NCBI GenBank assembly: GCA_001724265.1
Contig: MEDY01000054.1
Span: forward strand, 124,001 to 188,000
Origin: Rhizaria sp. SCN 62-66
Taxonomy: Eukaryota
Direction: 5' to 3'
DNA: 64,000 nt
Below the pieces are notes generated by a model. The model did no database searches. It saw nothing but the letters and a program-made list of their open reading frames with translations, and was not told the DNA's origin. Of this stretch, positions 3,640 to 60,169 are shown one piece after another. Within the stretch, counting starts at the first letter, position 1. Each line of letters begins with the position of its first letter. The position numbers and the translations under genes were made by a program.

Positions 3640-3954
3640 GTGTCCGTTACCTGCGAATTTGAAAATGAATCCGAACACAAAAGCGCGTTGTTAATAATGT
3701 GTGTTAATTAAAATCGTTCTGCTTGCGAGATGATCGCACAGTGCAAAATCCAAGCTCTGGTTCCTTTTCACCTCAAACGAGAAATGCAGCGACGTAGTCT
3801 AACTCACATTTCTTCGATTTTCATCGAATTAACCTTACTCAAACAATTATTTCTCTACGTATCATATAGAAATTGCGCGCACCAACCTATCTCGAACCTT
3901 AACACAAAGCTTCATTGACAGGACATACCACTATTCAACTAAACGGGGTGCTTC

Positions 3955-6900
3955 ATGGAGATCTCGCGCCCCTCGGCTAAATCCAAGCAGAAGAAGGCCC
4001 AGCAAACCAAACAACAAGACTCAAAACATGCGCAGAAGCAGCAATCGCAAGAATCCCGTGCGTCTGCTGTTGTCGATCCTGTCCCGCACGTTGTCGAGCC
4101 TGTTGCACCGAAAACAGTCGCGTCTCCGGTCGCTCCTGCCGAGTCCACGGTTGTCCCCGCAGTCTCAGCATCTTCTTCCTCATCGCTTGCTCCCACAGTC
4201 GCCGCGCCCGCCGCGGCCAACCTTGTCGTAGCACCGGCTGATGTCGCCGTTGATGAAGAGTACGGCGTGATTCTCGGCCGCTCCACGGAGCCCGCAATAG
4301 AATCAGCAGCAGCAACAGCAACAGCAACAGCAGCTACTGCGAAGGCTGAGCCTGAGCCTCTTGCCGCTGCCACTGTCGCTGCCTCTGAGGCCGAGCCCGC
4401 CTGCGCTGCTACTGCCACCTTCGCCGACGAGACTGTCGCGGGCTCCCTCGCGTTGGCCACGCGGCCCGCGCGTGCAGAGAGCGATCTCTCTGTGCTCATG
4501 AACGTCCCTGGCGCCGCACGCGCCGCCGTCGCCGTCGCAGAGGCCGAGGCCGAGGCTGAGCCTGAGCCTGAGGATGCGGTCACGCTCGCCGCCAGCATCC
4601 AGGCCGCCGTTGCCGCGGTGACGACGCCTGCGGCGGTCGCCGAGGAGGAGGAAAACGAAGTAAATGCGTCGACGACTCCGCCTGCGTATGCGTATGATGG
4701 CGTGGTCGTTGTTGCTCAAGAGCACAGCAGTGCAGTTGTAGAGGCGGAAGCTGTGGATGCGCCTGCTGCTGCGCATGATGCAGTCTTAGCTCCGTCAGCA
4801 GACGCTGTTGCCGTCTCCGCTCAGGCTCAGGAGGCTGTTTCTGTCCCCGCGGTCGCATCTGTAGTGTCTGTGCCAGTCTCTGTCGTCGCTGCTAGCCGTA
4901 TTGCGGTAGCAGAGCCGGAGCCGGAGCAAATCACTGTGCTAACGGTGCCGAGTTTATCTGCTCCCAGCTACAGTAACGTTGTTGCGCAACACGCCCAGCT
5001 GCAGCGGCAAGTCGACATGCATGCAGTGCACCCGCTGGTCCAAGCGCCCTCTCTGCAAGCACAGTCACTGCAGTCTCAGGCGCAGTCTCCGGCGCGGTCT
5101 CAGGTGCAAGAGCAGCAGGAGAGGAGCCACCATGCCGCCTCCTCGCTGGTCGTTGCGGCCGCAGTGACCCAGTCCGCGGCCGCCGCCGTCGCTGATGCCG
5201 CCGCGGCGCCTCTGGCCTCGGCGGCCCTCGTGGCGGCAGTGGAGGCCGCCGCCGCCGCCGAGCTGGCTGCGACGCACGCCGAAGCCGCCGCGCTGGACGC
5301 GACAGTGCTGCGACCCTCGGCGGCCGTGGTCGCGACTGGCACAGCGGCCGGGGACGCGCAGGGGCTGTTCCACTTCCCGCCCGGGTACGTCATCGACACC
5401 AGGCACATCAGCAAACCGCACACGCGCCCCAGTCTTAGCGGTTTTAGCAACAACGGCAATAGCGAGCATGTACCCGAAGGCGACTCAAGCGTTGCCGCTG
5501 CTGCGCGCGCGCGCGTGCGTCAGCTTGTCGACCTCCTGCAGGCTGCGCGCGTGGCGAGCGTTGAGGAAGAGCGCGCCGTTGCCGCTCAGCGCAAGTTAAG
5601 CCGCCACGCGGCCGCGCTGTCAACGCGCGTGCTGCAGGTCGCCGTTGCGATGACGCCGGAGCAGAGCGTGACCGACGACAACGAGGTGTTCCGCGCCGCC
5701 GTGCGCTACTATACCGTCACCAACGACACGGCGGCGGGCGCCACGGCGGCGGCAGCCTTTGCGACGGCGCTGCAGGCCCGCAGTGAGGTAATGCTCGGCC
5801 GCGTTCTTGAAGCACGGCTCGCACGCTCCCATGCCACGGCGGCGTTTGAGGCCGCGCTCGCCGCTGTGCTCGTCGACGCGGGGGTCGCGAGGCCCGGCGC
5901 GGTTGCGGGCAAGTTAGGCCGCGCATGCGCGAAGTTAGGCCGCTTGCAGAGCCGGCCACGTGTGCCAGTGGGGCCTGGGGGCGCCGATGCGGGCGACAAC
6001 GACAACAACGGCCACATTGCCACTGCTGCCGACTTCTCCTCCTCTGACTCCGATAGCGGCCGTGCTGTGCTCAGTGCCAGCAGCAGCAACGGCGCAGCAG
6101 CAGCGGCGGCACACGCTGGCGAGTCAGATTCTGACTCGGACTCAGACGCCGAGAGCGGCAGCGGTAGCGGGCGTGTGGCTGACTGGTTTGGCCTGCCGTC
6201 CGCGCTGCGTCTTGCGCCCGGGCTGCCGCTGGGCTGTCTTGCGCTGCCCGCGCCCGCCGCGAACTGCCGGGCGCGGCAAACCGCGCTGGCGACGCTGCGG
6301 GGGCTCCTCGTCGCGCTGCTGGCTTTTGACGCGCTCACGCCGGAGCAACTAAGGGGGTACTTAGTGCAGGACCCCGCTGCGCCGCGCGACCCGGGCGCCG
6401 GCATCGACTCCGACTCGGACTCTGGCGCTGACGCAGACGCCGCTGCCAACGCGGCTGTTAACGCGAGCAGCCGTGGCGTTGTAGATGATTGGGACTCGCC
6501 CCCGCGCGACACCTCAGATGAGCCCGCCTCACCGCCGCCTATGTACTCGGCAGATGCGCACGCAAAGCGCAAAGTCCCCATCTACACTGCATCGGTCTCC
6601 GTGCCCCCCGCGATCGCCGCTCTCCCGCTGCCTGCGCCGCGCGGGGCGCACCCGTTCACGTCCCCCGCGCCCGCCGTGACCGCGGGCTCGGCGGCCGGAC
6701 AGGGCTACCCGCTGCAGCGCGCGCCGCTGCTGCCGCCCGCGCTTCCGTCTGCAGCTTACCACCCGGGTTTTGGCGGCACGCCCGCCGGCGGGCTCTGGCA
6801 CCCGCTGCGCGCGCGCCCGCCGCTGCCCGCCGTGACCTCGGCGACGGCCGCGGCCGCTATGGCGCTGGCGCCCCCCGCGGGCGGCGCGGCTGCGGACGGC

Positions 6901-9900
6901 GCTGCGACCGACGCAGCGCTGTCCCACGCGCTGCTGCGGCACACTGTCGCCGGCTTCACGTTCATGGTGGGCGGCGACGTCGACGCCGTGGCCGCGACCG
7001 AGACCGTGGCGACTGCGCCCACGCGCGCCGATGCCGCCGCGGAGCAGGGCCGCGGCGTGACGGGCGTCCTGACGGCGGTGGCGGCCGAGGCGGGGCTCGA
7101 AACGGGTCCGCTCACGGTCTCGCTGCGCGTCGACACCGCGAAGCCCCCGACTGCAGTCAGCGCCCGCAATAACAACGACGGTGATGGTGAGCGTGGCGGG
7201 TCTGTGCGCGTGCGCATCGCGTTCGCCGTTCCCGCGGCCGCGCCTGCGGCATCAGTCAGCGCCGGCGCCGCGCGAGTGCCCACAGTTGTCGACGCAGAGC
7301 CGCTGCCGTGGCGCGTGCGCGGACCGGGCGCGCGCGAGAAGCTGGACCAGCTCGTCGCGAGCCAGCCGCGCGGGATCATGCGCCCGGTGACGGCCATCGT
7401 GGCGACCTTAGGCAACCTCATCATCTCCTCGTCCTCGGACGATGACGGCCAGGGAGACGAGATCGAACCCGAGGACGCGGCCTCCGCCGAGCAGCGCGCC
7501 TCCGCGGCCTATCAGCGCCGCTGCGCGCGCCAGCAACGGTCTGCGCTCGCGCGCGGGTACTATCTGTCCCGCGCGCATACGCAGGTTGGCACCGGCTCCA
7601 CCCCGGGGGCACGCGTCCCCGCTCTTGTCGGCGGCGGCGGCGTTTCTGTTGCGGCAGCGAACGCCGCCGCTGACGCGTGGGCGGGCTCTTTTTTCGGTCC
7701 CGGCGCCTCGGCCGCGCTCGCGAGCAACGCGCTGACCGCTCTGTGGCCCACGGCGACGGGCGGCCACGCCGACGTCCCCTCGGTTGCGGACTCGGCCGCT
7801 GCGAGCGCGTACTGGCTGCACCGCCACCGCAACGCCGGGGCGCGTCCTTCGCTGCTCGCGCCCGCCACTGCTGCAGTCGCGCGCTGGCCGTGGCTGCCGA
7901 CCGCGCCGACGGCGCTGCGCATGCGCTCGAACAACGCGAGCTCTGCTGCCGCTGCTGCTGCTGCCACGGCCGCGGCGGCGGCTGAGGCTGAGGGACTGAT
8001 GTCGCCTAACGCCGGCGAGCTCGGTTCTGGCGGCGGCGGCGGCGCGGCCGCGTATGTGCCGCCCCCGCCGCCCGGCGGCGACAACAGCAGCAACGCGTAT
8101 GGCGGGGACGCGGACCCCGACGCGGGCGCACTGCCGCCCAGCTATGCGGACGCTATCCACCAGTTCCATGCCAACTTCCCGCTCGCTGCGGCTGCGGGCA
8201 ACAGCGGCAACAACGGCGCCGACTACAACGTGCATAACGGCGCCGACTACGAGGCGAGCGAGGCCGGCAACGCCTTCGCTGCGCCGAGTTACCAAAGCGT
8301 CGTCCTCGCTGGCGCTGACGCGGGTCACAGCGGTGGCGGCGCGCGCGGAGGCCGCCGCCGTCGCCGCCGCGCCGGCGCGCGCGTGTTGCCGCTGCGGTCC
8401 TCCGCGCTGTCGATGGTACAGGCGCCGCTAGCGACGACGCTGGCATTCCCCGCGCAGTACTTGGTCGACACGCCCTCGATCGTCGTGCGCGCGCTGGACA
8501 AAGAGGCCACGGCTGCCGCGCAGCAGGCCCGCGAGCGCCGCGGCGAGTGCAGGCAGCAGCGCCAGTGGCGGCGCCGCGAGCGCGCGCTGGCCGTCGCGTT
8601 TGCGGGCGCCAACGACGCCGCCGCGAGCAGCTCCAGCAGCAGCGACAGCGACGCGGACGTGGGTTATCGCCGCGACAACGAGGAGGAAGATGGGCCCTCG
8701 GCCCCCAGCGCCGCCGCGGCCGCGCGCGCGGCGGACCTGCTGCCGCCACAGCAGCTGCAGGCCGTGATGGCCGCGCTGGGCGCGCCCACACTCACGCTGC
8801 CGGCCACGACGGCCCCCGGCGCGCCGCGCGCCGCCGCCGCCGCCGCCGCTCTGACAGGCGGCGGCGTGCTGGCGCTACGCGCGGGCGTGCGCCGGTGGGC
8901 CGCGCTCGTGGCCGCGTTGCTGCTGCGCTGCGGCGGCCTGCGCGACCACCGGTTCGTGCTCGCCGCGGCGCTGCGGCGCGGGGCCGGCGCGGGCGAGTGG
9001 CTCAATCCGGTCTCGTTCCCGCTAGCCAACGCCGTCGCGGCCGCCGAGGAAGCCGCTGCTAGCGGTATGATTGGCGGTGGTGTTGAGGCCAACAGAGCAG
9101 TGGACGCCGCCTTCGTGAGCGTGAGCGTGATCGACCTCGGAGCCCCGCTGCCTGCGTCTTTCTGGCGCTTCTCCCCGCTGTTGCGTCGCCACCTGCTGCT
9201 CTCGCTAGCCACGATCCTCACTCCAGGCGCCGCGTTTAAGCCCCCTGTGTCGTCCGATGCCACCGCCGCTTCGCCTGTTGGCGCTCTGTTGTCCGTTGCG
9301 CCGACTACGTTATCTGCCGCTGCAAGGGCTGCCGGGGGCGACGGCGAAAGCGGATCCGACAGCGAATGGGAGGCCGTCGACGCGTCCTACATTCCCTCTC
9401 TGTTACCGTCCTCGTTGTCGCCCTCCAACGCGCCCAGCCCCGTCAACGCCACTGCAGGCGGCGGTGCGGGACCGAGTGAGAGCGAGCTGTGCGCTCTGCT
9501 CGCGTGCGTGCCAGTGTCTGCCTTCGTGCGCGCGAGCGTGATCGACCTTGATGAGCTGCGCCCGCTGCCTCTGCCGGCCAACGCCGCGCGCGCCGCTGCC
9601 GCTGCAGTCGCAGCGCTTGCCCTCGATGCCGCCGCTCCCGCCTCCGCGTTGCTGTCCGGTGCGGGTGCAGGTGGAAGTGCGAGCGCGAGTGTGAGTATGG
9701 CTGTGAACGTGGCCAATCCTCCCAGCGACGCAGCTCTCTTTGCCTCCGCCGCGCCACAGGGAGGTCAGCCGCAGCAGCAGGCGGGTGGCCCGCGCGGTCT
9801 GTCCGCTCTGCTGGCGGCGTCGCTGGTGTTCACGTCGCATACGCACCCGCTGCCGACGCCGCGCGCGTGCCGCCGGCTCCGCGCGCGCGCGCTGGCGACC

Positions 9901-12900
9901 ACGCACGCGCTGACCGAGCTGCTGTGCCGCACTTTCCGCCGCCACGGCGACTGGCCCGACGCAGTGCGGCTTGCCGCGAAGCTCATCTCCGACGCCGCGT
10001 GGGCCGCCGCGCACTCGGCGCTACTGTTCGACGGCGTCGCCAGGGAGAGCCGCCGTCGCGCGGCTCTCCGCGCGCGCGCCGAGGCCGCCGGGCAGCACAT
10101 CTGCCGCTGCGAGCGGCCGCTGGTTGGCCCCCGCGCGGGCGAGGCGGTCGTCTTCTCCTCTACAACAGCGGCCGCGGCACGTGCGGGCGCGCTCGGCGTG
10201 GCGGTGACCGCTGACCTGGCTGCTGGACTCACCGCGCTTGAGGCCGCTGTTGACTCCGCCGTTGCTTCGGCCACTGGTGGCGCGCACGCGCCCGTGGCTA
10301 ACGCCTGTGCTGGCTGTTGCGGCGCTGTTTTCGGTGTGCGCTGGGACACAGACGCTGCTGGCCCTAACGGTGTGTCCTCTGCAGCTCGCGCAGGGGCAGC
10401 GAACGGCAGCATGTCCGACGGGGATGACGATAGCGAAAGCGACGATGACGCTGACGGCGCTGACAACGCCCCGGGTGCTGCCCCCGCCGCAGGACTCGGG
10501 TGGGCATATCAGCGCTCGCAAATGGAGCAGGCTCCGCCTGTCGCAAACGCTGCGCCCGGGCACGTGGCCGCGCCGCCGCGTCTTTCGCGCGCGTCGCAGC
10601 GGGGCCTCACCGCGCTTGTGACGAGTCTGCTGCTGCGCATGTGCGCGATTGTCGACGACAGCGCCGCGCTGCTTTTGCTGGCCACCGCGCTGCCGCTCGC
10701 CGCTCTGTCCGCGCACGCGCGCACGCGCGCGCTGGGCCTGTTGATTGCGGGCGAGGAGAAGGACCCCGCGCTCGCCCAGGCAAATAACAGCCAACACCGC
10801 GGTGCAGCCGCCACCAGCGGCTCTGTGCCCAGCGCAACGCAGCGGCTGATCGCGCTGCACACGCATCCGCGTGTGACGCCGCTAGCGATGTGGGCGCTGC
10901 GCGCGGCCGCGGGCTCCACGGTTGCACTGGACGCAAGCGGGACTGTCACCTTCCCGCGCGCGCCGCAGTTGCCGCCCCTTGTGCGCCTGCTGCAGCTGCT
11001 GGAGCGGCAGCCAGTACTCGCCCCGCACTTCCTCTCCACAGTGACCGCGGTCGCCACCTCAGGTATTGTCTCCGCGCCGTCGCGCGACAAGAACGCCAAC
11101 GGCGCCGGCGCCGCGCGCGGTGGCAACAACGCCGACGACGGGTCCAGGCCCAGCGCGCTCGTGCGCCGGTGCTGCGGCATCGTGGGCGCCGAGACATGGA
11201 CCGAGAAGGTCGTCGCAGCCGCGGCGCCGCTGCCTGCGGGCACGGACAGGCACGCAGTGTGGGGCGGCCTACTCGGCGACGCGGGCGCAGTGTTCGACAA
11301 CGAGCGCGAGGCCGTGATGACCGTGCTCACGAGCCCGCTCGCGCACGCGCTGCTGCCGCTCGTTCTCACGCTCACTCCGGGCGCCGGCGTCAACGAGCCC
11401 GCGGGAGCCCACGTTGCGCGACCCGCGATGGCCTCGGCCGCTGCGCTGGCGCTGGCGCGGGACCCCCTGGGTGTGGCGCCTGTTACAGCGCTCGCGTGGA
11501 CGCTTTTCATGGTTGCATATGTTCCTGAGATCGCGCCTGGTGTGAGTGTAAGCGCCGACGCGCGCGCCTCGGCGCTCTCCGTCGTTCCAGGTCTGCTTGA
11601 ACGTCTTTGCGGTTCTCTGCCGTCGCTGATCTCGCTGCTGCTCCTGTTGACACACTCGCACCTGTGCTCCGACAACGCGGCCGACCTTGTGTCTCTGTTC
11701 GAAGCACTTCCTTACGAGCGCTGGCGCCCATGTCTTACCGATCTGCGCGTGCTGGAAGCGCTGCTGCTTGCCGGTGCCGCCTCTGCCTCGTCCAGCTTCG
11801 TCTCCTCCGCGTACCAGGCCATCTCGACCGCGACCGCGGCTGCGGGCCACAAGGCCCTGGCTGTCGCGATGTCGTCTGCGCCCGCTGGCAACGGCAAATA
11901 TGCCGACATGACCGCTGATGCTGCCGCAGCTTCTTCTTTCGACGCGCTCGCTTCCACGCAGCTTTGCCCGGCGACGTCGCAATGCTTTTCCGCGGCCTCC
12001 AACACCGCGGGCGGCCGCGCCAGCGTCTCCTCTAGCGCGCACCCCCTGCCCTCGCCGCCCGGCTCCGTGGCGAGCGCCGCCGCCAGCACGATTGCGCAGC
12101 TGGTCGTGCTCTCACTGCCGCTCGGCTCGACGGCCGCGCGCGCGCCGCAGCTGGGCCACGCGCTGACGCTGACGCTGACCGACTCGCTGCTGCGCGTGCG
12201 CGCGCTAATGGTGCTGCACCGGTCCTACCCGCTGCCGGGGCCTGACGCTGAAGAGGCCGCCGCCGACGCCGAAGCCTCGAGCGAGGCCTAGCACAGCGCG
12301 AGCCTGTACCTGGCCGCGCTGCCGCCGCGCCACCCTGTGCTCGCGCCCCACGTTGACGCGGGCGCCCCCACGCCGAAGGCGATGGCCCCCGCACCTGCCT
12401 TGGTGGTCCCGCCGCTGGGCGCGCCGCTCGCGGCGTGGGCGCTGCTGTGGGCCGAGAACGCCGCGCTGGCAGCCGCGCAGGCGCCCGCGGCGTCGGGTCA
12501 GCGCGGCTACGGCGGTCCGGACCCGCTGCTGCTGGCCGCGGAGCACGTCTTCGGTCGCGTGCGCGACGCCGCGGCGCACGCTGCGTACATGACCGCGTCG
12601 CTCGCACCTGCGCTTAACGCACTAACGCTGCCGCTGGCGGCGCCGAGCGCTCCCATGGGCCCCGTCACCGCGGCGTGTGCGATGGCCACGGCCTCCGGGC
12701 TCAGCGCTGCCGGCGCGGCCGCGGCGGAGGCGGCGGCAGGCACGGGCAGCGAGGGTACCGCCGTGTTTTCCACTCTCTCCGCCTCCTCGGTGTGGGGAGG
12801 GAGCGTGCACAGCCACGGCAGCAACGGCCCGCTGCTGCTGAACCGCGGCCCCTCCGCGGCCTGGTGGAGCGTGGTCACGGCGAAGCTCATTTCTCTGCTG

Positions 12901-15900
12901 CCGCTCGCCTCGCGCCAAGCCGGCCTAGCGCTCCCGCTCGCGCTCACGGCCGCGCGCGCGCGCTCTGTGACGCAAGCGCCCGGGAGCGCGTCGCTGATGC
13001 ATCCCGATGCAGTGCCGGTCGGCGCGCTGCAGGTGCCTAAGCCCACGGTGCTCGACACCTCGCTCGTGCTTATCGCGAGCCCCGCCAATGTGACGGTTGC
13101 CGCGGCCAGTCACGTACGTCTCAGTCTCATCGCGCGCGACCCAGTGCTGACGGCGGCGCAGGTCGCGCTGGCGGCGTCTGCGCTTGAGGCTGCCGCCGTT
13201 GTCGACGTCAGTGGCAGCGCGGCTGCTGCTGAGGTTGTCGCCGGCGCGCTGCAAACCGCGATGACTGCGCAACAGGACGCTGCGGCCGCCGTGGCCAACA
13301 GCGTCGTCGCCGCGGCTGGCGCTGGTGGCGCGTGGGCGCGGGCCGAGGAACATTTGGAGCTCGACATTGGTCACTTGCACGTTTTTGAGCTCTCGTGGGC
13401 CGCCACCGTGACGATGCCGCCGGGCCCCGCCCTTGCGACCATCTGCGCCGCATCCCCGCTGCGTACGACGCTGCGGCTGCGCGCGCACCGCGGCGGCGAC
13501 GCCTCGCACCCGCTCGTGAGCCTGACGCTGTCGCTGGCGACCGACCGCGCCTCGGCCGCCGCGCGCGCTCTGCCGCTGCGGTTCGCTGCTATCCTGCCGC
13601 CGCACGCGCCCGCGCAGGCGGCGGCGGCGCTGGCTGCTCCCGCCGCGGCGCTGGCCGCCGCCGTGCGCTCGCTTCTGCTGGCGACTGCGACAGCGGGCCC
13701 CGTGCTCGCTGGCTGGCTCGTCACGCCCGATTACACGCACGGCCTGCGCCGTCTCGTGCAGGGCCGCCGCAGGCCCTACACGGCCGAGCCCGCGCGCGGC
13801 GCCACCGACGCCGACGCGCCTTCGCTGGGCCCCGGCGCAGCGCTGGCGACTGCGGAGCTGGGCGACGAGCCCGTCGGCGTGATGCCGCTGGACCGCGTGC
13901 CGCCCGAGGCGCTGCGCCGATTCTGCGCGCTCGCGGCCGCGGCCGTGATGACCTGCACGCCCGACACCACGGTCGGCGCCGACGACACGCGCGTGCCGCG
14001 AGGGCTGTCGCTGGTGTCGTTTGCGGCTGACACTGGCGTCGCGCTGAGCGAGCCCATGCCGCTCGTGGCCGCGCCGTACTCGACGCTCCCCACGCCGCCG
14101 CCCGTCTTCGCCTTCCCGCAGCTGCTGCGCACGCCCGCCGCCGCGCCCGGATTGGCGCCGCTCGACATGTGGTTGGCGTTTCTCGCGCGAGGCGGGCTGC
14201 GGCCGCTCAAGCCAGCCCTGCAGCCCGCGCCACCCGCGTGGCTGCGCGCGGTGTTTGCGTTCCAACCCGCGCGCTTCGGCGGAGCTGTGCCATACTCAGC
14301 CCCCGTCGGCGCGCTCGCCGCGCTGCCCCGCGCCGCCAACGCGAACCTCGAGTCGCGCGCCGCCACGCACGCGACTGCCGCGGCCTCTCCCGCGGCCTTG
14401 GCGCCCTCGGACCCTCTGCAGAAGCCCTATGACCGTCCCGGCACGTGGCTTTGTTCCAACGCCGGCCGCGCCATCGGCGACGCGCTGTGCCGCGCCGCGC
14501 TCTCTGCGCTGCCCGACGGAGGCCGCGGCGCCGGCGCCGGCGCGTTGGCGACGTCGCAGGCGCTGGGTCGGCTCATCGGCTTCCTGCGTACTTCCGCGCA
14601 CGCGCTCAACGCGATCCTGGCGCCCGCACGCGTGCCCCCTGCGGGCGCCGCATCTGAGGACCTCGCGGCGATGACCCTGCTGCTCGCGGGACCCGCGCCG
14701 CTGCTGGGGCTGTATGAGATTGCAGCGCGCTTCCCGTGGCTTGCATACGTGATGTTGCTACGCGACGCCATCGACTCGGCACCGCGGCTCTCTACCGCCG
14801 CGGCCGCGCTGGCCATCGCGGCGCCTCTCAACGCGGCGCCCGCGCTCGCCCTCGCGCACGCTCTGTCGCCCGCGGCGCTCGCGGGCCCCGTCGGCCCCGG
14901 CGCGCCCGCTGTGCCTGCCGCGGAGGCGCACGTCGTGTTCGAGACCACCGCGGCTCGCGCCGCAGTCGTGCTCGCGCTCTGCTGCTGGCGCCCGGAAGCC
15001 GCACCCAAGGCGCCAACGGCCTCGCTTGCGAAGATTGTGCCTGCTGTGACAACTGGCCTCGCGTCTCCGACCGCCGGTGCGGGCAGCCAGATCGCGAGCG
15101 ACTGGGCAGTTTTCAAGCACCCGCTCCTACCTCCGCCCGCGGCGGCCTCGCTGCCTTACACCGTGCTGCCGCTAGCGCTGCAGCTCGTGCTTACCGCGCC
15201 GGGCGGCCTCTGCGCCGCGGCGCCTGGCCTGGGCTCCGCGCTCTCGGCCGCGTCAGCGCCGGCACCGGGCGCATCCCCGCTCTTTACCCCCGCCGACCTG
15301 GCTGCCGGCGCCGCGAGCCCGCGCGCGTTGGCGACGGCCGTGGCGAACATGCAGCTGTGGCACGCCTCCGCCCTGGACCCCACGGCCGCGGCGCGAGCGA
15401 TCGGCGCGAACCCCGGGCTGTGGGGCGGCTTTCGCTCCTTCCAGCTGGGCCGCGGCCTCGCGGCGCTCCACATGCTCCGCGCCTCCTTAGCGCAGATGCT
15501 CGTGCACCACACAGCGGCGCGCGCGCCCTTGATTCCCGCGCACGTCGCGGCCGCGCCCAACAGCGCCGCTGTCGCGCGCGCCGCAGCCGCAGCCGCGGCC
15601 GCAGTGGGCCTGACCGTCAGCGCGGCCGACGACGCCGCTGCACTGGCCTACGCAGCCATGCACTGGCTGGGCACCGCGGCAGGCCCCGGTGCCACCGGCA
15701 TCGCGGGCGGTGCGCTGCGGGAAATGACGCGCTTCTTGCTCTCTGTGCTGCCACCTGAGGCGCGCGCCTCGCCTGCGCACTGCACGTTCGCGGCCAGCGC
15801 AGTGGCGACGCTCACTGCAGCCTCGCGCGCCGGCCTGTCGGGTCCGCTGGTTGAAATCGCGACTGCGCCGTGCGATTACTCGGTCCTGTGGGCTCCCGCT

Positions 15901-18900
15901 GCCGCGCTCAGCGGCCGCGTGAGCTTCATGACCGACTCGCTCAAGACGATCGAGACGACCGCGGCGCGCGAGATGGGTCCCGCCCTCGCGGCCCTCGCCG
16001 AGCGCTGCGCGCTGGCCACCGCGCCCACGGGGCTCGCCGACGCCGCCGCCGCAGCGCTGGGCCGCGCGCAGCTGCCCGTGCAGCTGGGGTGGCGCAGCGT
16101 CGAGGCTCTCACCACCGCCTTCACCATCACCGCTCGCTCTGCCGATGCGGTGCCCCGCGACGTGGCGACGGCCGCCGCGGCCGCGGCTGCCTGCGCGGAC
16201 GGCCTGGCGCCCGCGCTGGCGCTCGAGTCGGCGACCGCGGTGGCCGAATGGCGCCACTGGGTCGAGTCCGCGTGGCGCAACAGCACCGCGGCGCGGCCCG
16301 TCTCCCAGCCGCCGTGCCCGTGGCTGCGGCTTGCTGCCGACGGCGACGGCGACGCGGGGGGCTCGCCCTCGCTCGCGCCGCAGCTGCTGCCGCTGCGCTT
16401 GTCGACTGCGCTTGGGTTGGGCTTGGGCCGCAACGCGCCGGGCGTCTTCTCCGGCGCCGGCGCTGGCATGAGTCTCGACCCCGTCGTCGGCGCGCACTGC
16501 GCCGCAGCATCGCCGTCCAACGGCCTTGCGCTGTGGCTCGATCTCTGCTCGCCCACGCTGGCGCTCGCGCCGCTGTTCGCGTCGCTCAACGCGGTGGGCT
16601 TTGCCGCGGCCTGCGTGACTTCCCCCGCCGCCGCGGCCGCCGCAGCCGCCGCGGGCGCTGCCGCTGGCTTGCCGCATCCACTCGGCCCGCACATCGCGCT
16701 TCCCGACACGGCGGCGACGGCGGGTGAGCTGGGCGGGCCCTCGCCGCGCGCGCTGGCCGTCGTCGCCGCGATCGTTGGCCGCCACCCCGTCATCTCGGCC
16801 GCGCGCTGCCTGCTCTCGCGCCTCCAACAGCGCCGACGCCAGCGAGAGCGCGAGCGCGGCGCTGTCCCGGGCGCTGCCGTGCGCTCCGCCGCGCTCGAAC
16901 ACCTCACCCCCGGCAACACCGTGTGCGTCGATGAGGCCTCGCTCGGCGTGGTCGTCGACTGCAACGCCGGCGACGCGGACGCAGACGTAGGCATGACTGC
17001 GCTCACGCTGCTGCTCGCGCAGGCGTGCTGCCCCGGCCCCGCGCTCGCGTTCCGCGCCACACGCGCGCCCGCAGCGAACGCTGGCAGCGGCAGCACCGCG
17101 GTCGCCGTGGCGAACGCGGCAGCGGGCACGGCGGCCGCGGCGCTGTCGCAGTCGGTGACGACTGCGGCGCACGCCGTGCTGGCGAACTGTCCCAGCGCGC
17201 TGTCCGTCGCCGCGCCGCTGCTGCCCGCGCTCGCGCACGTGCCGCTTGTCTCCGCACTCGCCGCCGCCGCAGCCTGGCGCCGACCCTCCTCCGCCGACGC
17301 CCAGTTGGGCTTCGACGTCGCCGTGTGCACAGCGCTTGCCGCGATGCGCGCGGGCGAGTTCTCGCTCGTCTCGCGCGCCGCTGGCGCGCGCAACGGCGTC
17401 GTATGGCGCGCGGGTGGAGGTGGCGCGGTCGCGGCTGCGTGGGGCGGGCCCAACAGGCTCACTGCGCGCGCCGCCGCCGCGCTAGCCGCGCACACGGGCG
17501 TGCTCTGGGCGCCGCCGCCCGCCTGCACCGCGGGCTCGGAGGCGCCCGCCGACAGCGCAGCCTCAGCGGGCGGCTTGACTTTCCACCCGCTCACTGTCGG
17601 CGTGCCTGCGCCCGACGGCCGCGGCGGCGCGCGCCTGCAGTGGCACTTCACCCCGCCCGCGCCCGCCTCCGTGGCCGTCGCGCCGGCAGCGAGTGCGGTC
17701 GCCGCTGCGACGGGGCTGCTGGTCCCGCTCGGCTCGCCGCAGGCGCTGGGCGGCCTCCGCCTGCCTCCCGCACTGCAACTGCCCGCGTGGGCGCTGGGCG
17801 CGGCCGTGCCCGCGGCGGCGGCGTCACTGGCCGCCGTGGCGCGGACGCTGCGCCGCGCGCGGCTGCTGGCGGTGCGCGACGCCGCCGCCGTGGTAGCCGC
17901 GATGCCGCAGGTGCTGCTGAACGAGCCCACGACGACGCTGGTGCCGTACCGCAGCTTCAGCGGCCGCCCGCTGCGCCAGACGGAACTCGCGCGCTTCAAC
18001 CACACTGCGCTGCGCGTCGACTCGGCGCGCCTGCTCGTGCTCGCCACGGCCGCGCACGGAGGGTTGGGGCTGCGCTTGCGCCTCAGCGTGCCCGTCGAGT
18101 GCTCGAAGGACGACCGCCGCGCCGTGGGGATTTTCGCCGCGCAGCAGCAGCCCTCGAGCGCCCGCAACGCCGCCGGCACGGTGCTTTCGCCCTACGCTGT
18201 GTCGCGCCCCGGTCAAGCAACCGCGGTGGCCGCTGCCGCCGTCAATCGCGCCCGCTTTGTGCGCACCGTCGCGCTCTCTGCCGCCAGCGCCGCCGCGACA
18301 CCGGGTGTTGCCCGCTCTGCGTCCGTCTCGCTCTCTCGTCCCAGCGGCAGCGGCGGCAGTGCGCATGTACGCAACAGTGCGCTTCCCGCCGCGCCGCCCA
18401 GCTACAACGCGCTCATCGCGGAGCGCGCCGGTCAATCTGTTTCGTCGCTCCACGCGCGCGACAACCGGCCCGTGCTGCTGTCGGCGCTCACGCTCCCACC
18501 GGCGTCTGCTGCAGCCGCGGCCGCCGCTGCGAACAGTCTCGGTCGCGTGCGCGTGGGTGCGCCGTGGGTGCGCTCCGCCGACATCGCGCTCGCGCCCGCA
18601 CTGACTTCCGCGGGCGCTGAGGACGACAACGCGCAGAACAGCGCCACGCACCCGCTCCGGCTGGGCGCGTACGCGCTGGCGGCGGCCGTCGGCAAGACGT
18701 TGACCGTGCCCGTGGCGGCCGCCGCGCTCGCCGCGCACTGCGAGTGGCTGCGCGCCACGGCCGCGGCTCTGGTTCGCGCAGACTGCGCGCCGACCGCGCT
18801 GCTGCGCCGTCGCCAATGGCGCGCTCTTGTGCACTCCGTTGCCTTTGCGTGGGATGCGGCGCTGGCTGCGCGCTCGCCTGCCGACGCTGCTGCGGCTGCC

Positions 18901-21900
18901 ACAGTGGCGGTTGCTTCCGTGTCGCCCGGCGCGCTCCGCGCTGACGCCGCGTTGCTGTCGCTCCTGCGTCCCTCTGCCCACGTGCGCATGCACGTTGCGC
19001 TGGTGCGCGCTGCAGCCGCCACCGCGTTGGCGACGCTCGCCGGCGTGCCGCTGCAGACGCTGGTCGCCAGCGGTGTGGTCAGTGACGCCGCAACGGCCCC
19101 GCTGCCCGGTGGTGTGGCGATGGGCGTGGCTGACATCATGGCCGAGCCCGTCACGGCCGCGGTGGCTGCGCCCGCGGTCGCGACGCTTGTCAAGCTGCTT
19201 GCCACCACCGCGCTGCCTGCCGCTCCCGCTGCGGACGCCGCCCCTAACAGAGGCACGAACTCGCAGGCGGCGTTCCTGCTGTTGCTGATGCGGCTGCGCG
19301 ACACGGTGGCGTTTGCGCCACCGCGTCTTGTTGCGCGCGCTTTGCTTGGCACGCTGCGTGTCCGCCGCTCGCCCGTGCGCCCCAAGCTCATCTCGGCCGC
19401 TGCTGGTGCGACGCCCGCTGCTAAGCTCCCCGCGCTGGCAGTGACCGTGAGCGCGCCCATGACTGAGCACGCGCTCTGGGGGCTGGGGCTGCCGCTGGCG
19501 GCCGTCACGCGCTTCGCCCGACTGCGGGCCCGCGCTGCGGCCCCCGGCAACAGCTCCACCGTCGCGGTCTCGTTTGACAGTAGCGGCCACCTGTTCGGCC
19601 CCGCGCACGGCCGCCGCTGCGCGCTGTCACGTGTGCAGCGCTTCCCGCTGACTCTCCCGCTGCACACGCCCGCGCACGCCGCTGAGCTCACCGTCGCTGC
19701 AGCCGCGCTGCTGCTCTCGCTGCGCGGCAGCTGCGGCGCGCGCGGCGGCGGCAGCAAGGCCGACGGCTCGGACGGCGGCGCCGACGCGCGTCTGCTCGCC
19801 GCGTTTGCGCACCGCGACAGTGCGCTGTTGCAGGGCTCTTGGCAAGCTGCAGCCCCCGCGCCGATTCCGTTGGCCGCACTTGTTGCTGCAAGTGCTAATG
19901 GCCGCTGCCATTCCTCCGCCGACTTCGAAGCGGGCAGCCACCCGCTGGCTCCCAACCCGCTAGCTTCTGTGCCCGCAGCTGTTGCGACGAGCGCGGCGGC
20001 TGTCGCGACCGTTGCGCACGCCACCACCGTCACAGCTGCGGTTTCGCCCATCGCGATCCTGGGCGCGGCCTTCGAGCCCGCCGCCGCAGTCTACGCGAGC
20101 CCTGCTCTGGCCCCCGCAGACTACGCTGCAGCCGTGCTCAGCGCGGCCGCGGAACCCGCGCCTCTGTCCGCGCTGTGCACGTGCCTCGGCGCGGGCTCGT
20201 CAGTCAGTCTGCACGCAGCCGCGGCAGGCGCGGCGCCGTCGCGGCCCGGGCAGCTGCCGGTGCCGCACCACGCCGCGCCCGTGCTCGCACTCTCGCTGGC
20301 CGCCGCAGCGCTGGCCCCCGCCGCAGGCGCGCGCACCAACGCCGACTCGGCGCTCGCCGCGCTGGCGGCGCTCGTGACCGTCCCTGCGATGCCCGCGCTA
20401 GCGGCGGACAACGAGCGGCCCGCGCCTGCGTCGCTGGCGCCGCCCGCAGGCTCCCCGCTGACGCGCGGCGACGGCGCCTGGGGCCCGCTGCGCGTGGCCG
20501 CGCTGCGCGCGCCTTTGCTCTCGGTGCTGCAGTCCGCGTTCCCAGTGTCTGTGGCTGAAAGCAACGGCGCGCACCTCGCGACCGCGGGCGCCAGTCTGGC
20601 CGCCGTGGCTGCCGTGCGCGCGCTGGCGGCCGCGCTGTCCGCGACCGCGGGCGTCGCGGAGACCGTGAGCACGCTGCTGCTCACCGCGGACCTGGGCGCC
20701 GCCGCGGCCGCCGGGCGCGGCGCCGTCTCGGCCGTCGCGCTGGGGCTCGGTGCCGTCGACTTTACCGAGGACCTCACCGGCGACGAATGGCGGCTGCTGA
20801 CCCTGGCCGACGACTGCCGCGGCGGGCTCGGCGCCACGGGCTCCGGCGCGAACGGCGCCGCGGCGGGGCTGGCGACGGCGCACGCGACGAACGACACCTG
20901 GGACTCGGAAGACGATGGCGACGACGATGGCGAAGCCGCCGCAGTCGCAGCTGTCGCCGCATCTGAAGCGTCGTTCGCGGACGGACTGAGCCAGGGCGGT
21001 GCCGCGCCGGCGCCCGCGCCTCCGGGCCAGGCCCAGTCGGTCAACCAGGCCGTCAATGGTTCCCGCCATAGCCCGCGCGAAGTCGACGCCGAGGCTGAGG
21101 CTGATCCCGAGTCTGGTGATGATGACGAAAACGTGCTCAAGGCAGCATTCTCATACATGGGCCTTACGATGCCCGTGTTGCCCGAAGACGCCAAAGTGCC
21201 GCCACCGCACAAGGACGACCCGCCCCAGCTGCGCGGGTACACGAGCCGCTTTAAGGGCCGCTGGACGGGCCGCCACGTCAACGTCTCCGACTTCGGGCTG
21301 CAGCACGTGGCGAGCCCGCGCGCGGACGAGCCCGCGGTCGACGACGACGACGAGGGTGCGGGCAAATTGCCGCACGGGTCCGACTTTGTGCCCGGCGCTG
21401 TGTGGCACGACTGCGCCTCTGCGGATGCCGCGACCGCCGCCAGGGCCGCGCTGACCGCCGCCGCGCTTGCAAGCGACTGCGCGCGTGCCAAGAAGTCCGA
21501 ATCCACCTCCATCGCCGCCGCGGCCACCGCCATCGCGCGGCGCGTCCGCGCGGACGGAGCCGCCGCGCTCGCCACTGCGCAGCGGCTGGTGCAAGCCAGC
21601 GCGCTTGCGCCGACGCTGGCCGAGGCCGCGTTCACGCTCTCCGCGTGGGCACCCTACGCCGACGACGCTGTGCGCGTCGCGCGCACGCTGCTCGCCGCAC
21701 AGGGCGCCCATGAGGCCCGCGAGATCGCGGTGCCCGCGCGCCCGCAGCTGCCACGGCTGCCCGTCGCGCCTAGCCCCGCCGTGGCGGCCGCGCTGACGGT
21801 CGCCGTGCTCGGCGCGCTGCACACGCGCGCGGCGCTCGTGCAGCGCCACTGCCTCTGGCTCGCGCGCCGTGCCACCGCGACCGCCATGGCCGCCGCGAGC

Positions 21901-24900
21901 GCCGCGTCGACCGCCGCCGTGTCCGCCGCTGCCACAGGCGCCGAGGGCGCTGCGGGCGAGGCGGGCGTTGCGGCCGTGCTCGCGTGCGCGGTCGACGTAG
22001 CGCTGCAGCACGCGCTGCTGCAGCACTGCCCGATGCCCGCGCCGCTGCTCTGGCTGCCCCACCCCGCGCTGGTGGCCGAGGCCGAGCCCGCGCGGCCGGC
22101 CTGTCCCTGCGGCTGCGCTAGTGGCGCCGCGGCGGCGGACTCGCGCACCGCCGCCGCCGTGGCCGCGACGTTCCACCCCGCGCTGAGCGCGCTGGCGGCG
22201 CGCGCGGCACCCCAGTGCGGCGCGACGTCCGGCGCGCGCGTGCGGCCCGCGGCCGAGACGCCCGCGCTGCGCGGCGTGCTTTGGGCCAACAACGTCGCCG
22301 CCGACGCGCCGCGCTTCTGGATGGCCGCGCCGCACGCGCATGGCGCTCCGCATGCGCGCCTGTTGCTGCGCAGTCTTGCCGCCATCTTGGCCACGGCCTC
22401 GGCCGCCGCTGCGGCGCTGCCTGCCGCCACGCCAGTCGCCGTCGCGCACGCCGCCGCGGCCGCTGCGGTCGCCACGGTGCACGCCGCTGCGGACGCGTTC
22501 GCCTCGGCGCGCGCCGCACTGTCGCCGTGGGAGCGTGCGGTGTGCCCCGGCGTCGGGGACGACTTGTACACCGACGTCGCGGGCATCGCGCTCTTTGCCG
22601 CGCCCGCGGGCGCGCCGCTGTCGCTGCCGCTGCTGCTGCACCCGTTCCTGCCCGACCTGCGTCTGCTCGTACGCAGCTGCGCGCTCCGCGCCTCCGCCGC
22701 CGCGCTCGTGCTCGCGGCGCCCACTGCTGCAGACCAGCCGGCCTCCGCTGTAGCAGCCGCGGCGCGCGCGGGCCTCTCTGCGCTTTGGCGCGTCGCTGGC
22801 CCGCTCGTAGCCGCCGGCGTGCCCGTGCGGCTTGACTTCGATTCCGCGGACCTCGGCGGTGTCACCGTGGCCGAAGCCGTCGCGGACGCAGACGGCCGCG
22901 ACCGCCTGTCCGCGGCCATTGCTCTCTCGCCTGGCGCCGCGCCCAGCGCCAGCGAGTCCGCGCTGGCCGCGCTGCTGCTCACCGTCGCTGAGACCGCGGC
23001 CGAGCTGACTGTGGGCGCGCCCGCCGTCGTCGCGGCTGTGGAGGCACTGGAAGCAGCCGTCGCGGGCGCCGCGGGCGTGCAGGCGGAGAACAACCAGTCT
23101 GAGCCCCCCGCCGCCGCTGGTGCTGCGTCCGCATCTTTTTCCGCTGCTGCCGCTGCTGCTGTCGCAGAGCGCGTTGCCTCGCTGCCGCTGCCCGCGTGCG
23201 CCGAGCTCGTGCTGGACGCGGTGCTAAAGCTGCTGCGCCTGGTGTCGGTGCTAGTCGCCTCAGCCGACCCCCGCGCCGCGCGGCCCACCCTCGCCGCGTT
23301 GCTGCGCCACCCCGCGCTCGCGCGCGCGCTGCTCACGGTTGCGCCCTCGGCCGCGGCAGGCTTCGTCGCCGCGTCGTGCTGCCCCTTCGCCTCGCTGCGC
23401 AACGCCGTCGTGGCGATGGTCGACGGCGTCACCTCACACTGCGAGGCCACCGTCGCCGCTCACGACGCCGTGGCGGCGTACCCGCCCAACACCGTCGCCA
23501 CTGCGGGGCTCGCCGCGCCGTCCACCGCCGCGCGCGCGTGCTGGGGCCGGCTGGGCCGCGTCGCGAACGCGCGCTCGCTCCACCAGCGGGGCTCGCGCGC
23601 CGCGATGGCCGAAGCCGCCGCCACGGGCTCCGCCAAGCTGGTGCTGGCCGCGGCGCGCGCCGTACGCTGCCCCCGCGCTGCCGCCGCCGCGCGCGAGGGA
23701 GCCGTGGCCTCCTTTGGTCTGAGCTTGCTTGCGCGCTGCGACTGGCACACGCTTACGAACGTGACCCGCGCCGAACCCGCCGCTGCCCTTCCCGCTGCGT
23801 CTGTGCAGGCACACGCGCCCGCGCCTGCTGCGTCTGCCGCTGTTGCCACGCTGCCCGTGTTGATGCGCCTCTGGGCGCTGGCCGCGCGGCCCCTCGCGAG
23901 CGGCGAGGCCGCTGAGCTGGACGCCGCCGCGCGCCGCAGCTCCGACGCGACCGCCGCCGCCACGGCCGCCGCGACGCTGTCCGGCGCCGCGGGCGTTGCT
24001 ACAACGCTCTGGGGCCGCTGGCCGATGCTGCGCGAGGCCGTACGCGTGCTTGCAGTCTCGCACGCGCGCGCGGAGTCCAAGCGCGCCGCGGGGTCGCTGT
24101 CTGCGCACACCGCCGCGGCCGTCACGCGCGCTGCGACCGTGCCGCTGCCGCTGGGCGTCGCGCGCGCGTGGGCCCTGCTCTCGGGCGCGCCCGTCGCGTC
24201 GCCGCTTGACGCGTTGGCCGAGGACGCCGCGGTCGCCGCCGTTGACGACGAAGTGGCGACGGCGTCGGCAGTGATGGCGGGCGAGGCCACGCCGCACAGC
24301 GATGCCCCCGCGCGGCCGCTCTGCGCGCACGCCGCGCTGCTGCTCGAGGCTTTCGCGCGCCTGCCTTGGGCGCGCACTGCGCTCGACGCGATGCCAGTGC
24401 AGCACCGCGCGGGGCCCCGCGCCGCGCGCGCGGCCGTGGCGCATCTCTCCGCCGCGCTCGCCGCCGCAGTTGCAGCTGCGCCCGACTCACGCGAGAGCGC
24501 GTGGGCTGCCGAGGCCGCGCTGCTGCAGCCCGTGTCGGCCGTGCCGCAGACGCTGCAGACCGCGGTGCCCGCTTCGCGCGGCCACGTGGCGAGCAGCGGC
24601 GTGCTCTTCGACGGACGCTTCGAGGGCTCCGTCGAGTCCGAGGCGCCGTACCAGCTGCCCGCCGTAGTCGCGGCTGCCAACGCGGCCGCGACGAGCGCGC
24701 TGGCGACGTGGTGCGGCATCCCCGGCGCCCCGGGGCAGCGCGCGCCGACCGCCGCGCGGCTGGGTACGGGCCCCCTGCGCTCGGTGCTTATTGCGATGCA
24801 TGCGGGCGCGGTCGCCGCCGCCGCAGTCGTCGCCGCCGAGGCCGACAAGCCCGTCGGTCTCGCTGACGACGATGATGATGATGACGAGAACGGTGCGCGC

Positions 24901-26721
24901 GCGAGTACGCACCGCGGCAAGTCCGTGTCGCGCTTCTGGTGGCGGCGCGGGCCCGCGGACTACGAGCCCGCCGCGCCGTCGCTCTCGCGCCCGCAGTCGC
25001 TCGCGCAGTCGCCCGCTGCCGCCACGGCCGCTGCCGCAGCCGCGGAGGAAGAGGACGACGCCGCCGCGCACGGCTCCGCGGCCGCGCGGTCCGCGCTGCT
25101 CGCGCTGGCGACACTCTCGCTGCAGCCGGGCGGCGCCGTCGCGCGCTCGTGGTGGCGCCAGCGCGCCTGTCTCGGCGTCGCGCTCATGCTCGCGGCCCCG
25201 CTCGCCGCGCCCGTCGCGCTGCCCGCGGCGCACCCGCTGCTCGCCGCGCCGCCCGCGCTCGCGGCCGCGACTTTCGCAGCCGCGCCGCTGCTGCAGTCGA
25301 GCACCCCCGTGAGCGCGGGCGCGAGCCCCGGGCCGCTGGGCGCGGGCGGGCTGGCGCAGCTGCCCGTGCACGAGCTGTGGGCCGTGGCGCCCGACGTGCA
25401 GGGCGCGACCGTGGGCTCCGTGACCGCGTACCTCGCCGGCCCCGCGGCCTTGCCCGTCGCCGCGGGCGCGCACTCCGCCGCGCTGCTCGCCACCGCGGCT
25501 GGCAAGGCCCGCCGCGCGCTCGCGCCCGCGGCCTTCGCGACCGCGCTCGCCGTGGGCGCCGCCGCGCAGGCGCTTGAGGAGGCCTCGATCGGCGCTCTAG
25601 CGCGCGCCGAGACCCCCGCCGAGGTGCCAGGTCCCGTGGCGGCCGCCATGACGGTTGAGCACGCGCGCGCAGTCGCGTCCGCGGTCTCCGTGGCCGCCGC
25701 CGTCGCGCGCCTCGTAGCGCCGCGCGATCCCGTCCCCGTGGACGCGCACCACGCGCGCCGCGGCGATGAAGAGGAGGAGGGCGCCGGCCACGGCCGCGAG
25801 CGCTTCGGCGAGGGCGAGGGCGAGCCCCACGCGAGCGGCGCTGCCGCCGAAGCCGAGGCCGACGTGAGCGTCGAGCCCGACCTCGACGCCATGTTGTGCG
25901 CGCCGCCGCTGATGGCCGCGGTCGCACTGGCAACGCTGGCCGCGGCTGTGCACGCCACGCTGCCGCTGCTGCACGCGCTGTGCCCGGAGCCGCGCTGCGC
26001 CGCCGCCGCCGCTGCCGTGGCCGCGCCCGCCGCCAGCCAGGCCCTGCTCGCGGCCGCGGGCTGGACGGCCGCTGCAGCCGCCGCGCCTGTGCTCGTGCCG
26101 GTGTCCGCCTCCGCGGCGGCCGCGACGGGCGCGGGCGCAGGCGCGGCTGGTTGGGCCCGGCAGATGGTCGTGTGCGCGCGTGCCGGCCTGGCCTCGCTGC
26201 TGAATCTCGAGCTCAGCCCCAACCTCGCGACCTCGGTCAGCGAGCTCGACGCCAACGCGGCCGCCGCTACTCACGCGCGCTGCGCGCTGGGCGGCGCCAC
26301 GCTGGCCCTGGTGCGCGCGCACACGGCCCGCGGGCTCGCGCCGCCACTCGCCTTTGTCGCGCCCGCCGACAATGCCGGTCACGCGAACGTCAAGGCGAAC
26401 GCGAACGCCCATAACGACGCTCTGTTACGCGTGGGCGCAGCGCCGCGGCCGCTGCTAGTGCTATCGAGCTTGCAGCACGTCGAGCGCAAGGCCAGCGTCG
26501 CGGCGTGGCGCCCGCACGAGGCCGCGGCCTCGGCGCTCGCGCCCCTCGCCGCGGGCTTCGCCGCCATTGCCGCCGCGGAGCGCGCGTTTGGCGCTGACGG
26601 CGACTGCGCCGACGCGGAGGCCGCGCACGCGATCGCCGCAGTCGGGCTCGCGGCCGACGCCTTTGCAGCCGAGCTCGCGCACGCGATTGCGCCGCTGATG
26701 CTGAGCGGCCCGCCCCAGCGC

Positions 26722-26752
<31 letters not shown>

Positions 26753-45605: not shown

Positions 45606-45859
45606 GCGATGCGACACGCAAACTGTGAGCACAAACATTTAAAAAAAAAATCTACAGCATATCGATACATAGAAATCAACTTTACATAATTGAAATAAAC
45701 AATTTCTGTATTTATATTCACAAATTATACATCATTACACGATTGAATTGATTCACTATTTAACTTCGGCCTGAAGTTGCCGTCCTTGCTTAACAATACT
45801 CATTCTGGCATTCTCATACGGCCACTTAACGAAACTAGCACGTCCTCTTCAAGCTGTGC

Positions 45860-53500: not shown

Positions 53501-54057
53501 GCGCTGCACGGCGGCGGGCCGCTCGACGCCGCCGTCCTGCAGGCGCCACTCGAGTGCGACCTCGACTGGCGGCCCCGCGGCGCCGGGCGCGCGCCGCAGC
53601 GCCGACACGGCCGCAGTGATGTGCGGGACGGGCGCCTGCAGCGATCCCACGCCCGTGGCGGGACCCGGCACCACGCCCGCGGCCGGCGCCGTCATCAGCG
53701 CGCGCTGCGCCGCGGCCGCAACGGGCACCAGCTGCTCGGGAACGCACGGCAACAGCGGCAGCGGCGAGACCGGGTCGCCGAGCGCGGATGTGGCGGAGGC
53801 GGTGGCGGCAGTAGGAGCAGCAGCGGCAGCAGGAGCAGTGGCTGCGCCAGCGACAGTGGTGGCAACAGCGGCGGCTGGGAGGGCCACGGAGGCGCCGGCG
53901 TCGGCGCGGCCGTCGGTGCGAGTCTTGCTGCGCTTGTCAGCCTTGTCCTTGGCAGAAATAGCCTCGTCATCGTCAGAGGAGTCGGCGTCGCGCTTGCCGT
54001 CACTCTTCTTGTCCTTCTTGTCCTTTTTGTCCTTCTTGTCCTTCTTATCGGCTTTGA

Positions 54058-54105
<48 letters not shown>

Positions 54106-54817
54106 CCTCAAGTGCGCGTTTGCGAGACCACGACGACGACGAGGAGGAGGAGTCCTGGGCAATCATACTGTCACCTTTAGAGCTTGCGCTAGAACTAAAG
54201 CTAGAGCTAGAGCTCGAGGAGCTGGGCTTTGCGGCGGAAGCTGCATCTCTCTTTCTGTCTGACGATGACTTAGAGCTGCTACTGCTACTGCTGCTGCTGC
54301 TCTTGCTACTGCTGTTGCTGCTGCTAGTTGGAGAGGCCGCCTTCACGGCGGGGGTGGCCGCCTTGCTGGAAGTGGGCTTGGGGGTCGGGGCCGGAGCCGG
54401 GGCCGGAGCCGGGGCCGGAGCCGGGGCCGGAGCCGGAGCCGGAGCCGGAGCCGGGGCCGGCGCGGGGGCGGAGGCGCCGGTGCGGCGGCCACCGCCCCAG
54501 AGCGGCATCAGAGCCGTGTCATAAACGGCGCGCTGCTTGGCGAGCTCCTGTACGGAGAGGCTCTCGAAGGCGCGCGCGGCGCGGAAAGCGGGCTCGCGCT
54601 TGACCCAGTGCTGGCCGACGATGTGGACCCACTCGACGGTGCACCAGGGCGAGCCCGCCTGCGCCTTGACCACAACGCCGAACAGCTGCTCCACGTGGAG
54701 GTTGCGCACGTAATCGTCCTCCGCCAGGCCCAGGTTCGCGTCGTCGATCGGGGCGAGCAGCAGCGTGCCCTTGACGACGTCCTCGGCCGTCGCCGTCACC
54801 TGCTTCGGGGTCGCCAT
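50576..54817 (-). CDS. PiggyBac transposase-derived (PGBD-like) protein lacking catalytic aspartates; in-frame TAG at 50758-50756, next stop TAA at 50578-50576
   Basis: Colinear piggyBac-like blocks: RRRYATGNQFVMG, HVYLLCSASS, GCAVMLSSRLSSVPLAAALLAMGIVTAGTVNPRQALAP, LPVVEMLF, LLDLVGALQSNAFVNY, DFAKRLAKALL. C-terminal Cys/His cluster CEGCRC...CCVECS..VWVCARCSLAHLH. The protein is 1353 aa to the TAG and 1413 aa to the TAA. Confidence 0.7.
54059..54102. repeat. (GCT)n microsatellite encoding poly-Ser on the minus strand
   Basis: Pure gct run of about 14 units. Confidence 0.9.
54388..54470. repeat. 6-bp tandem repeat encoding an (AP)n linker on the minus strand
   Basis: About 13 units of gccgg(a/g). 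Confidence 0.9.

Positions 54818-60122: not shown

Positions 60123-60169
<47 letters not shown>

Follow-up and report, generated by a model that had tools for sequence, protein, structure and literature searches.

An in-frame TAG in a giant gene of an uncultured, GC-rich eukaryote: nonsense allele or decoded codon?

The stretch of DNA analysed here (the window) comprises 64,000 nucleotides (nt) of a contig deposited under the name Rhizaria sp. SCN 62-66 (GenBank assembly GCA_001724265.1, contig MEDY01000054.1, positions 124,001 to 188,000 of the forward strand). It contains a giant gene whose reading frame is interrupted once, by a TAG at 12289-12291, and a second gene, gene 12, which carries another in-frame TAG 38 kb away. 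An initial annotation of the sequence had proposed that UAG is decoded in this organism. The TAG at 12289 truly exists in the DNA of the organism, an uncultured and GC-rich eukaryote with introns. The reading we favour, though with only about even confidence, is that the organism uses the standard genetic code and that one or both TAGs are recent nonsense (amber) alleles.

The giant gene and its in-frame TAG

The features referred to in the text are collected in Table 1. A recount of the frame reproduced the junction described in the initial annotation, in which GCC TAG CAC links an open reading frame (ORF) of 2,778 codons to a further 5,633 sense codons. The TAG is the sole stop among the 8,412 codons of the frame, whereas over the same stretch 142 stops occur in frame 2 and 126 in frame 3, with longest open runs of 251 and 561 codons, respectively. 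Both halves have therefore been kept open by selection. The GC content of 100-nt windows stays between 0.73 and 0.82 over 12150-12550, with no AT-rich spacer, and the 177 nt past the TAG score -3.38 per codon, inside the coding range, in a codon-usage model derived from the remaining genes of the window (coding mean about -3.5, standard deviation 0.2). The unchanged GC content and codon style previously reported for the site were thus confirmed. Alanine accounts for 24-30% of the residues encoded by the frame, and no internal repeats are shared between the two halves of the gene. The TAA at 29191-29193 has G as its next base and an AT-rich 3' flank beyond. This is one gene interrupted by one codon, not two genes.

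Table 1. Features of the window. Positions are those of the window.
Feature	Position	Strand	Remarks
Giant gene, upstream part	3955..12288	+	ATG 3955, 2,778 sense codons, 24% alanine, no domain recognised
Giant gene, in-frame TAG	12289..12291	+	GCC TAG CAC; sole stop among 8,412 codons of the frame
Giant gene, downstream part, same frame	12292..29193	+	5,633 sense codons and TAA
Gene 12, body	50759..54820	-	First ATG to codon before TAG; low-complexity, no Pfam match
Gene 12, second in-frame TAG	50756..50758	-	GGC TAG CCC; 160 nt inside GC-rich block
Gene 12, post-TAG tail	50576..50755	-	59 Ala/Pro-rich codons, then TAA (50578-50576) with next base G
U6 spliceosomal snRNA gene	42524-42625	-	77.6 bits, E 5.6e-18; between two protein genes
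TMEM43 gene	48382-50366	+	Domain across two ORFs, AT-rich intron between
GTACGT donor site	32645-32653	+
GTACGT donor site	46726-46734	-
GTACGT donor site	47716-47724	-
GTACGT donor site	49319	+
GTACGT donor site	57679-57687	-

That the TAG is a normal terminator between two genes, or belongs to an intron, is very unlikely. Adjacent ORFs do share a frame one time in three, and an in-frame interval of 81 nt runs from a GT at 12211 to the AG contained in the TAG itself, but all the other gene boundaries and introns in the window are AT-rich and the site at 12289 is not. The base following the TAG (position +4) is C, unlike that after any of the 12 terminators of the complete genes. The plus-strand matches to GGTACGTCT that lie nearest, allowing one mismatch, are those at 5384 and 13113, which could not enclose the TAG. 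The 81-nt interval itself was rejected as an intron, as it lacks both the consensus and the composition of the five introns inferred in the window. All five of these begin with GTACGT. The earlier statement that there is no GT(A/C)CG-type intron around the TAG is in agreement with these results.

The giant gene belongs to no recognisable family. Three large pieces matched no family in Pfam at E <= 0.01, and nine pieces at E <= 5 gave nothing but two stray sub-threshold matches. No chain in the Protein Data Bank (PDB) matched residues 1-2778 or 2780-7779 at E <= 1, and the best score in Atlas, 0.77 to 'virilizer', was under the lead level. The label 'EPG5-like' given to the gene in the initial annotation found no support in the Pfam, PDB and Atlas searches, the libraries of which may hold no EPG5 model. 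The region of the junction was searched separately. With residues 2200-3399 (1,200 amino acids, aa), phmmer returned only the window's own two products from 1.84 billion representative proteins, a scan of metagenomes of the Joint Genome Institute (JGI) with 1,101 aa around the junction gave no relative, and word-index searches with 601 aa and 241 aa of the junction gave no match. An exact match to 29 nt beside the TAG was found in neither the viral nor the genome contig collections. As no relative of the junction was found, no residue can be aligned to TAG 12289.

Contigs from two sequencing runs bridge TAG 12289 with 0 differences, one of 12,348 nt from run X1 (4389-16617) and one of 7,233 nt from run X3 (8649-15881), and no other letter at 12289-12291 was listed in any of the four runs compared. 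Both X1 and X3 are possible sources of the window, but they belong to different studies and years, so at least one of them is independent. In a protein collection, the upstream product was present on three contigs (22,962, 192,655 and 111,554 nt), as an entry of 2,778 aa and two with shorter start calls, with a common end at the TAG in every case. The downstream product was present on two of those three contigs, and one entry (P0002) is 100% identical to the window's product. Very little weight can therefore be given to an error of sequencing or assembly, or to a heterozygous site of which the TAG is one allele, since the stop is carried by the DNA contigs of two studies and by three database contigs; assembly error, one of the refuting conditions named in the initial annotation, is thus unlikely. 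Contigs drop minor variants, and a second allele could in this way escape notice, but only one minor variant (at 3032) was listed over 20 kb in X1.

Three runs from bioreactors or wastewater, produced by two studies between 2015 and 2017, contain the full stretch, and part of it is present in runs up to 2025, including one polyA RNA library. In X1 the depth of this organism is about 30, while X5 and X7-X14 contain small shares of the stretch and were not among the runs compared. Runs X1 and X3 differ from the window at 0 or 1 positions each over 20 kb, and a JGI metagenome contig (L001), the only match of its scan, is 100% identical over 4,873 nt (window 56263-61135). Because the samples are near-identical, the evidence amounts to one genome, and a private nonsense allele is quite possible. 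The strains in runs X4 and X6, from 2024-2025, diverge by ~0.2%, and among their pieces listed none covers TAG 12289.

Run X4 is the polyA RNA library, which may include DNA; no other RNA run contains a good share of the stretch. Its pieces cover both halves of the giant gene, with eight listed between 5355 and 21614, and this fits one long transcript. The pieces listed nearest the TAG are 11641-12113 and 12601-13396, and none bridges 12289. Five of the ten differences between X4 and the window are A>G, with no T>C and no G>A, as might be seen if the mRNA were subject to A-to-I editing, which would turn UAG into UGG (Trp). In filamentous ascomycetes such editing is described as often targeting UAG, and there too a genomic UAG lies inside an otherwise intact gene (PMC11156358, PMC4817773). 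Editing is nevertheless highly improbable here. T precedes the A at only one of the five A>G sites, the contexts of which are not uniform, and 3032, one of the five, is also G in the DNA runs X6 and X1 and is thus a strain difference. TAG 12289 falls in a stem of the predicted fold, unlike the hairpin loop expected from the ascomycete case, and the organism lies outside the fungi in the tree of its GNL1-type GTPase (see below). The A>G differences in X4 are probably strain differences. The remaining four, at 2760, 7060, 11246 and 12034, are on the plus strand, and the asymmetry is unexplained.

The second TAG and codon statistics

The second in-frame TAG was also correctly located by the initial annotation, at 50756-50758, where it is followed by 59 sense codons and a TAA. 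Gene 12, for which no search for relatives was made, has no Pfam match. Its TAA sits 20 nt beyond the switch from GC-rich to AT-rich DNA. The 59 codons past the TAG score best in frame 0, at -3.61 per codon; the remaining two frames, which contain stops, score -3.97 and -4.02. Counted from the first ATG, the tail cut off by the TAG makes up 59 of 1,413 residues. The C-TAG-C context noted earlier is present at both TAGs.

The count of sense codons in the genes of the window came to about 17,300, close to the previous figure of roughly 17,000-18,000, and the two TAGs correspond to ~0.1 per 1,000. Among about 15,900 codons, the rarest sense codons are ATA (7), AGA (8) and TTA (13). Low-complexity regions of Pfam-unmatched genes, which tolerate truncation most readily, are the setting of both TAGs. 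In-frame TAG is absent from the eight Pfam-matched genes, which encode ribose-5-phosphate isomerase (RpiA), Rpb8, glutaredoxin, an R3H domain with a mitochondrial carrier, a WD40 protein, TMEM43, a GNL1-type GTPase and a protein kinase.

Of all the single-base nonsense mutations possible with the codons used in these genes, 68% yield TAG. The background frequency of a following C is 27% and that of a preceding C is 46%, and a pair of random nonsense mutations would on this basis show C-TAG-C at both sites about once in 140 cases. Given the 68% share of TAG and the background frequencies of C, the shared context is weak evidence for UAG-specific decoding. The context factor is common to the nonsense and decoding readings, which are separated only by the choice of TAG (0.46 for both sites) and by the terminator count.

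Neighbouring genes and genome architecture

The U6 snRNA gene identifies the contig as eukaryotic nuclear DNA. Exons are 70-78% GC, while introns and intergenic DNA are 25-50% GC. The window is thus a compositional mosaic, for example at 45609-45856, 46476-46732 and 57968-59488, and gene structure can be read from GC content alone. The five introns, inferred from sequence and Pfam continuity and not from RNA, are AT- or pyrimidine-rich and begin with GTACGTC (four) or GTACGTA (one), so that the donor site is unusually rigid. A TAA at 49375-49377 falls within the TMEM43 intron and is consequently not a terminator.

A frame of 791 codons on the plus strand (39806-42181) runs uninterrupted through an R3H domain (residues 141-203) and then three mitochondrial-carrier repeats. 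If this is a single gene, the fusion would be an unusual one. The GNL1-type GTPase (55482-57967, minus strand) was placed in a tree of 38 rows drawn from 120 listed matches. It falls in a well-supported clade with 11 environmental sequences, outside all the named groups of the tree, among them the amoebozoan, fungal and animal ones, and the closest member of the clade (P0008), from a sister species, is 83% identical. A profile of this clade gave no match in the genome contigs. A literature search for a recoded protist from activated sludge found no such organism among the matches listed.

Readings of the two TAGs

If the favoured reading is correct, the genetic code would be standard and TAG 12289 would be a recent nonsense mutation fixed in a near-clonal strain. 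The main product would stop after 2,778 residues, presumably by termination at the TAG, and the 5,633 downstream codons would not yet have had time to decay. The TAG of gene 12 would be a second and milder event of the same kind, removing 59 low-complexity residues from the tail of the protein. The stop is found in genomic DNA, in the contigs of X1 and X3. The situation resembles an ordinary nonsense polymorphism or a young pseudogene, in that a single stop lies in an intact long frame of a fast-evolving, Pfam-unmatched gene in one clonal strain.

A number of observations weigh against a nonsense allele. No decay was found across the 5,633 downstream codons; as the 16.9 kb past the TAG are without a stop or a frameshift, only a very young mutation would fit, with an age comparable to the ~0.2% strain divergence. 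Unlike an ordinary nonsense polymorphism, it is accompanied by a look-alike TAG 38 kb away and by the absence of TAG from the terminators. In our own annotation, with both TAGs read through, the 12 complete genes end in TGA (nine) or TAA (three) and never in TAG, the same counts as in the initial annotation. If TAG made up 15-20% of terminators, the chance of finding none in 12 would be about 7-14%. The base after the stop is G at ten of the 12 terminators, mostly as TGA-GC, A at one and T at one, whereas C, the next base at both TAGs, occurs at none. The 177 nt that follow have a GC content of 0.25-0.62 and a score of -4.39 to -6.01 at the 12 terminators, as against a GC content of 0.79 and a score of -3.38 for TAG 12289, and 0.76 and -3.61 for TAG 50756. 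Neither TAG resembles the terminators of this genome, and no other point speaks as strongly for the initial annotation.

The rate of such alleles has also to be considered. In natural yeast isolates, nonsense variants are found in a fraction of a percent to about 1% of genes. At that rate roughly 0.2-0.3 nonsense alleles would be expected in 17,300 codons. Two in 14 genes exceeds this base rate, with an estimated probability of 1-4%, which is a further argument against the nonsense reading. Combined with the lack of TAG terminators, taken here as about 0.1-0.15, the probability is about 1-3 in 1,000.

The alternatives in which UAG is translated share much of this evidence. Site-specific readthrough, in which UAG is a stop but leaky at both sites (UAG-C), so that a short main product and a C-terminally extended one are made, is improbable. 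Coding character does continue past both TAGs, and C stands at +4 of both and of none of the 12 terminators; among the weak 3' contexts given in PMC9272376, four of five begin with C. The six bases that follow the TAGs (CACAGC and CCCGCC), however, do not fit the readthrough motif. The tobamovirus-type motif is CAR-YYA (UAG-CAA-UUA), and viral genes and kelch and headcase of Drosophila are known cases of readthrough. As in these programmed systems, an in-frame stop is here followed by C and a long coding frame. Unlike them, the sites lack a full motif and an exceptional downstream structure, as the 135 nt from TAG 12289 onwards fold no better than shuffled sequences (z = -1.29; 24 of 200 at least as good). 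The extension would also be 5,633 codons, and we know of no readthrough extension as long as that. Finally, readthrough would have to be very frequent for 14 genes to include two cases. As for specialised amino acids, selenocysteine uses UGA, and to our knowledge there is no eukaryotic case of pyrrolysine.

Decoding of UAG throughout the genome, by reassignment or by suppression of an unassigned codon, with UGA and UAA still stops and both genes translated to their TAA, is possible but unlikely. Coding composition and codon usage continue past two of two TAGs and past none of the 12 TGA and TAA terminators, among which there is no TAG. The GC-rich block of gene 12 extends 160 nt past the second TAG, and the TAA of that gene is 20 nt outside it, whereas the other stops of the window lie between 44 nt inside and 75 nt outside the GC/AT switch. 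The TAG is stable in the DNA of two studies, and a count of two is not far below that of the rarest sense codons. Against this, only two TAGs are present, both at unconstrained low-complexity sites and none in a Pfam-matched gene, 12 terminators are a small sample, and a strong bias among stops can arise with no reassignment. The window contains neither a tRNA gene nor an eRF1 gene. The prior is also low. No more than a few dozen lineages are known to have reassigned a nuclear stop codon.

Nuclear codes in which UAG alone is changed do exist (PMC5304391, PMC11687900, PMC10553269). According to PMC5304391 (Panek et al. 2017), UAG encodes Leu in the rhizarian exLh and Gln in Iotanema spirale, with 384 in-frame UAG in 71 genes in one of the two codes and 204 in 126 genes in the other, or 1.6-5.4 UAG per gene; nearly all transcripts of Guttulinopsis are described there as ending in UAA. 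As in exLh and Iotanema, where 71 of 71 and 119 of 119 terminators are other than UAG, the window has in-frame UAG and no UAG terminators (12 of 12). In those organisms, however, many UAG fall at conserved Leu or Gln positions, as is expected of a UAG-only code, whereas here there are two in 14 genes and none can be aligned, and the frequency of UAG is 30-100 times below that of the known cases. In phyllopharyngean ciliates (PMC11687900) and the ciliate PL0344 (PMC10553269), the meaning of UAG is likewise separate from that of UAA; the present organism differs from those ciliates in its GC-rich exons and in its position within an environmental clade of the GNL1 tree.

The low frequency might be accommodated by a reassignment at an early stage, in which termination at UAG has been lost and recapture is beginning, at ~0.1 per 1,000 codons and at unconstrained sites only. 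We consider this doubtful too. UGA-G and UAA-G would in that case stay strong terminators.

An estimate for reassignment was obtained from a prior of a few per thousand and a factor of perhaps 1 in 10 for the low frequency of UAG, and is few-fold below that for nonsense alleles. A generally leaky UAG adds about as much again as reassignment. Taken jointly, reassignment, leaky UAG and editing make decoding of UAG in some form a substantial possibility, but one we would not bet on. The estimates are soft, and a factor-of-three change in either base rate would reverse their order. The facts on which the initial annotation based its proposal that UAG is decoded here have stood, while the proposal itself is partly supported and goes further than the data allow, resting as it does on one near-clonal strain, 12 terminators and two TAGs. 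It is weakened further by the 68% of nonsense mutations that yield TAG and by the absence of TAG from the eight Pfam-matched genes.

If the TAG is a nonsense allele, it is an ordinary strain-level knock-out of a giant gene without a family, and matters little. If instead UAG is decoded, the nuclear genomes in which UAG has parted from UAA would gain a further independent example, from a lineage that has no relatives in culture and with a codon frequency far below that of the described cases. It might be a UAG-only code in a transient stage of 'codon capture', a stage unseen in the cases described so far, and it would bear on how reassignments begin, that is, whether by disappearance and recapture of a codon or through an ambiguous intermediate.

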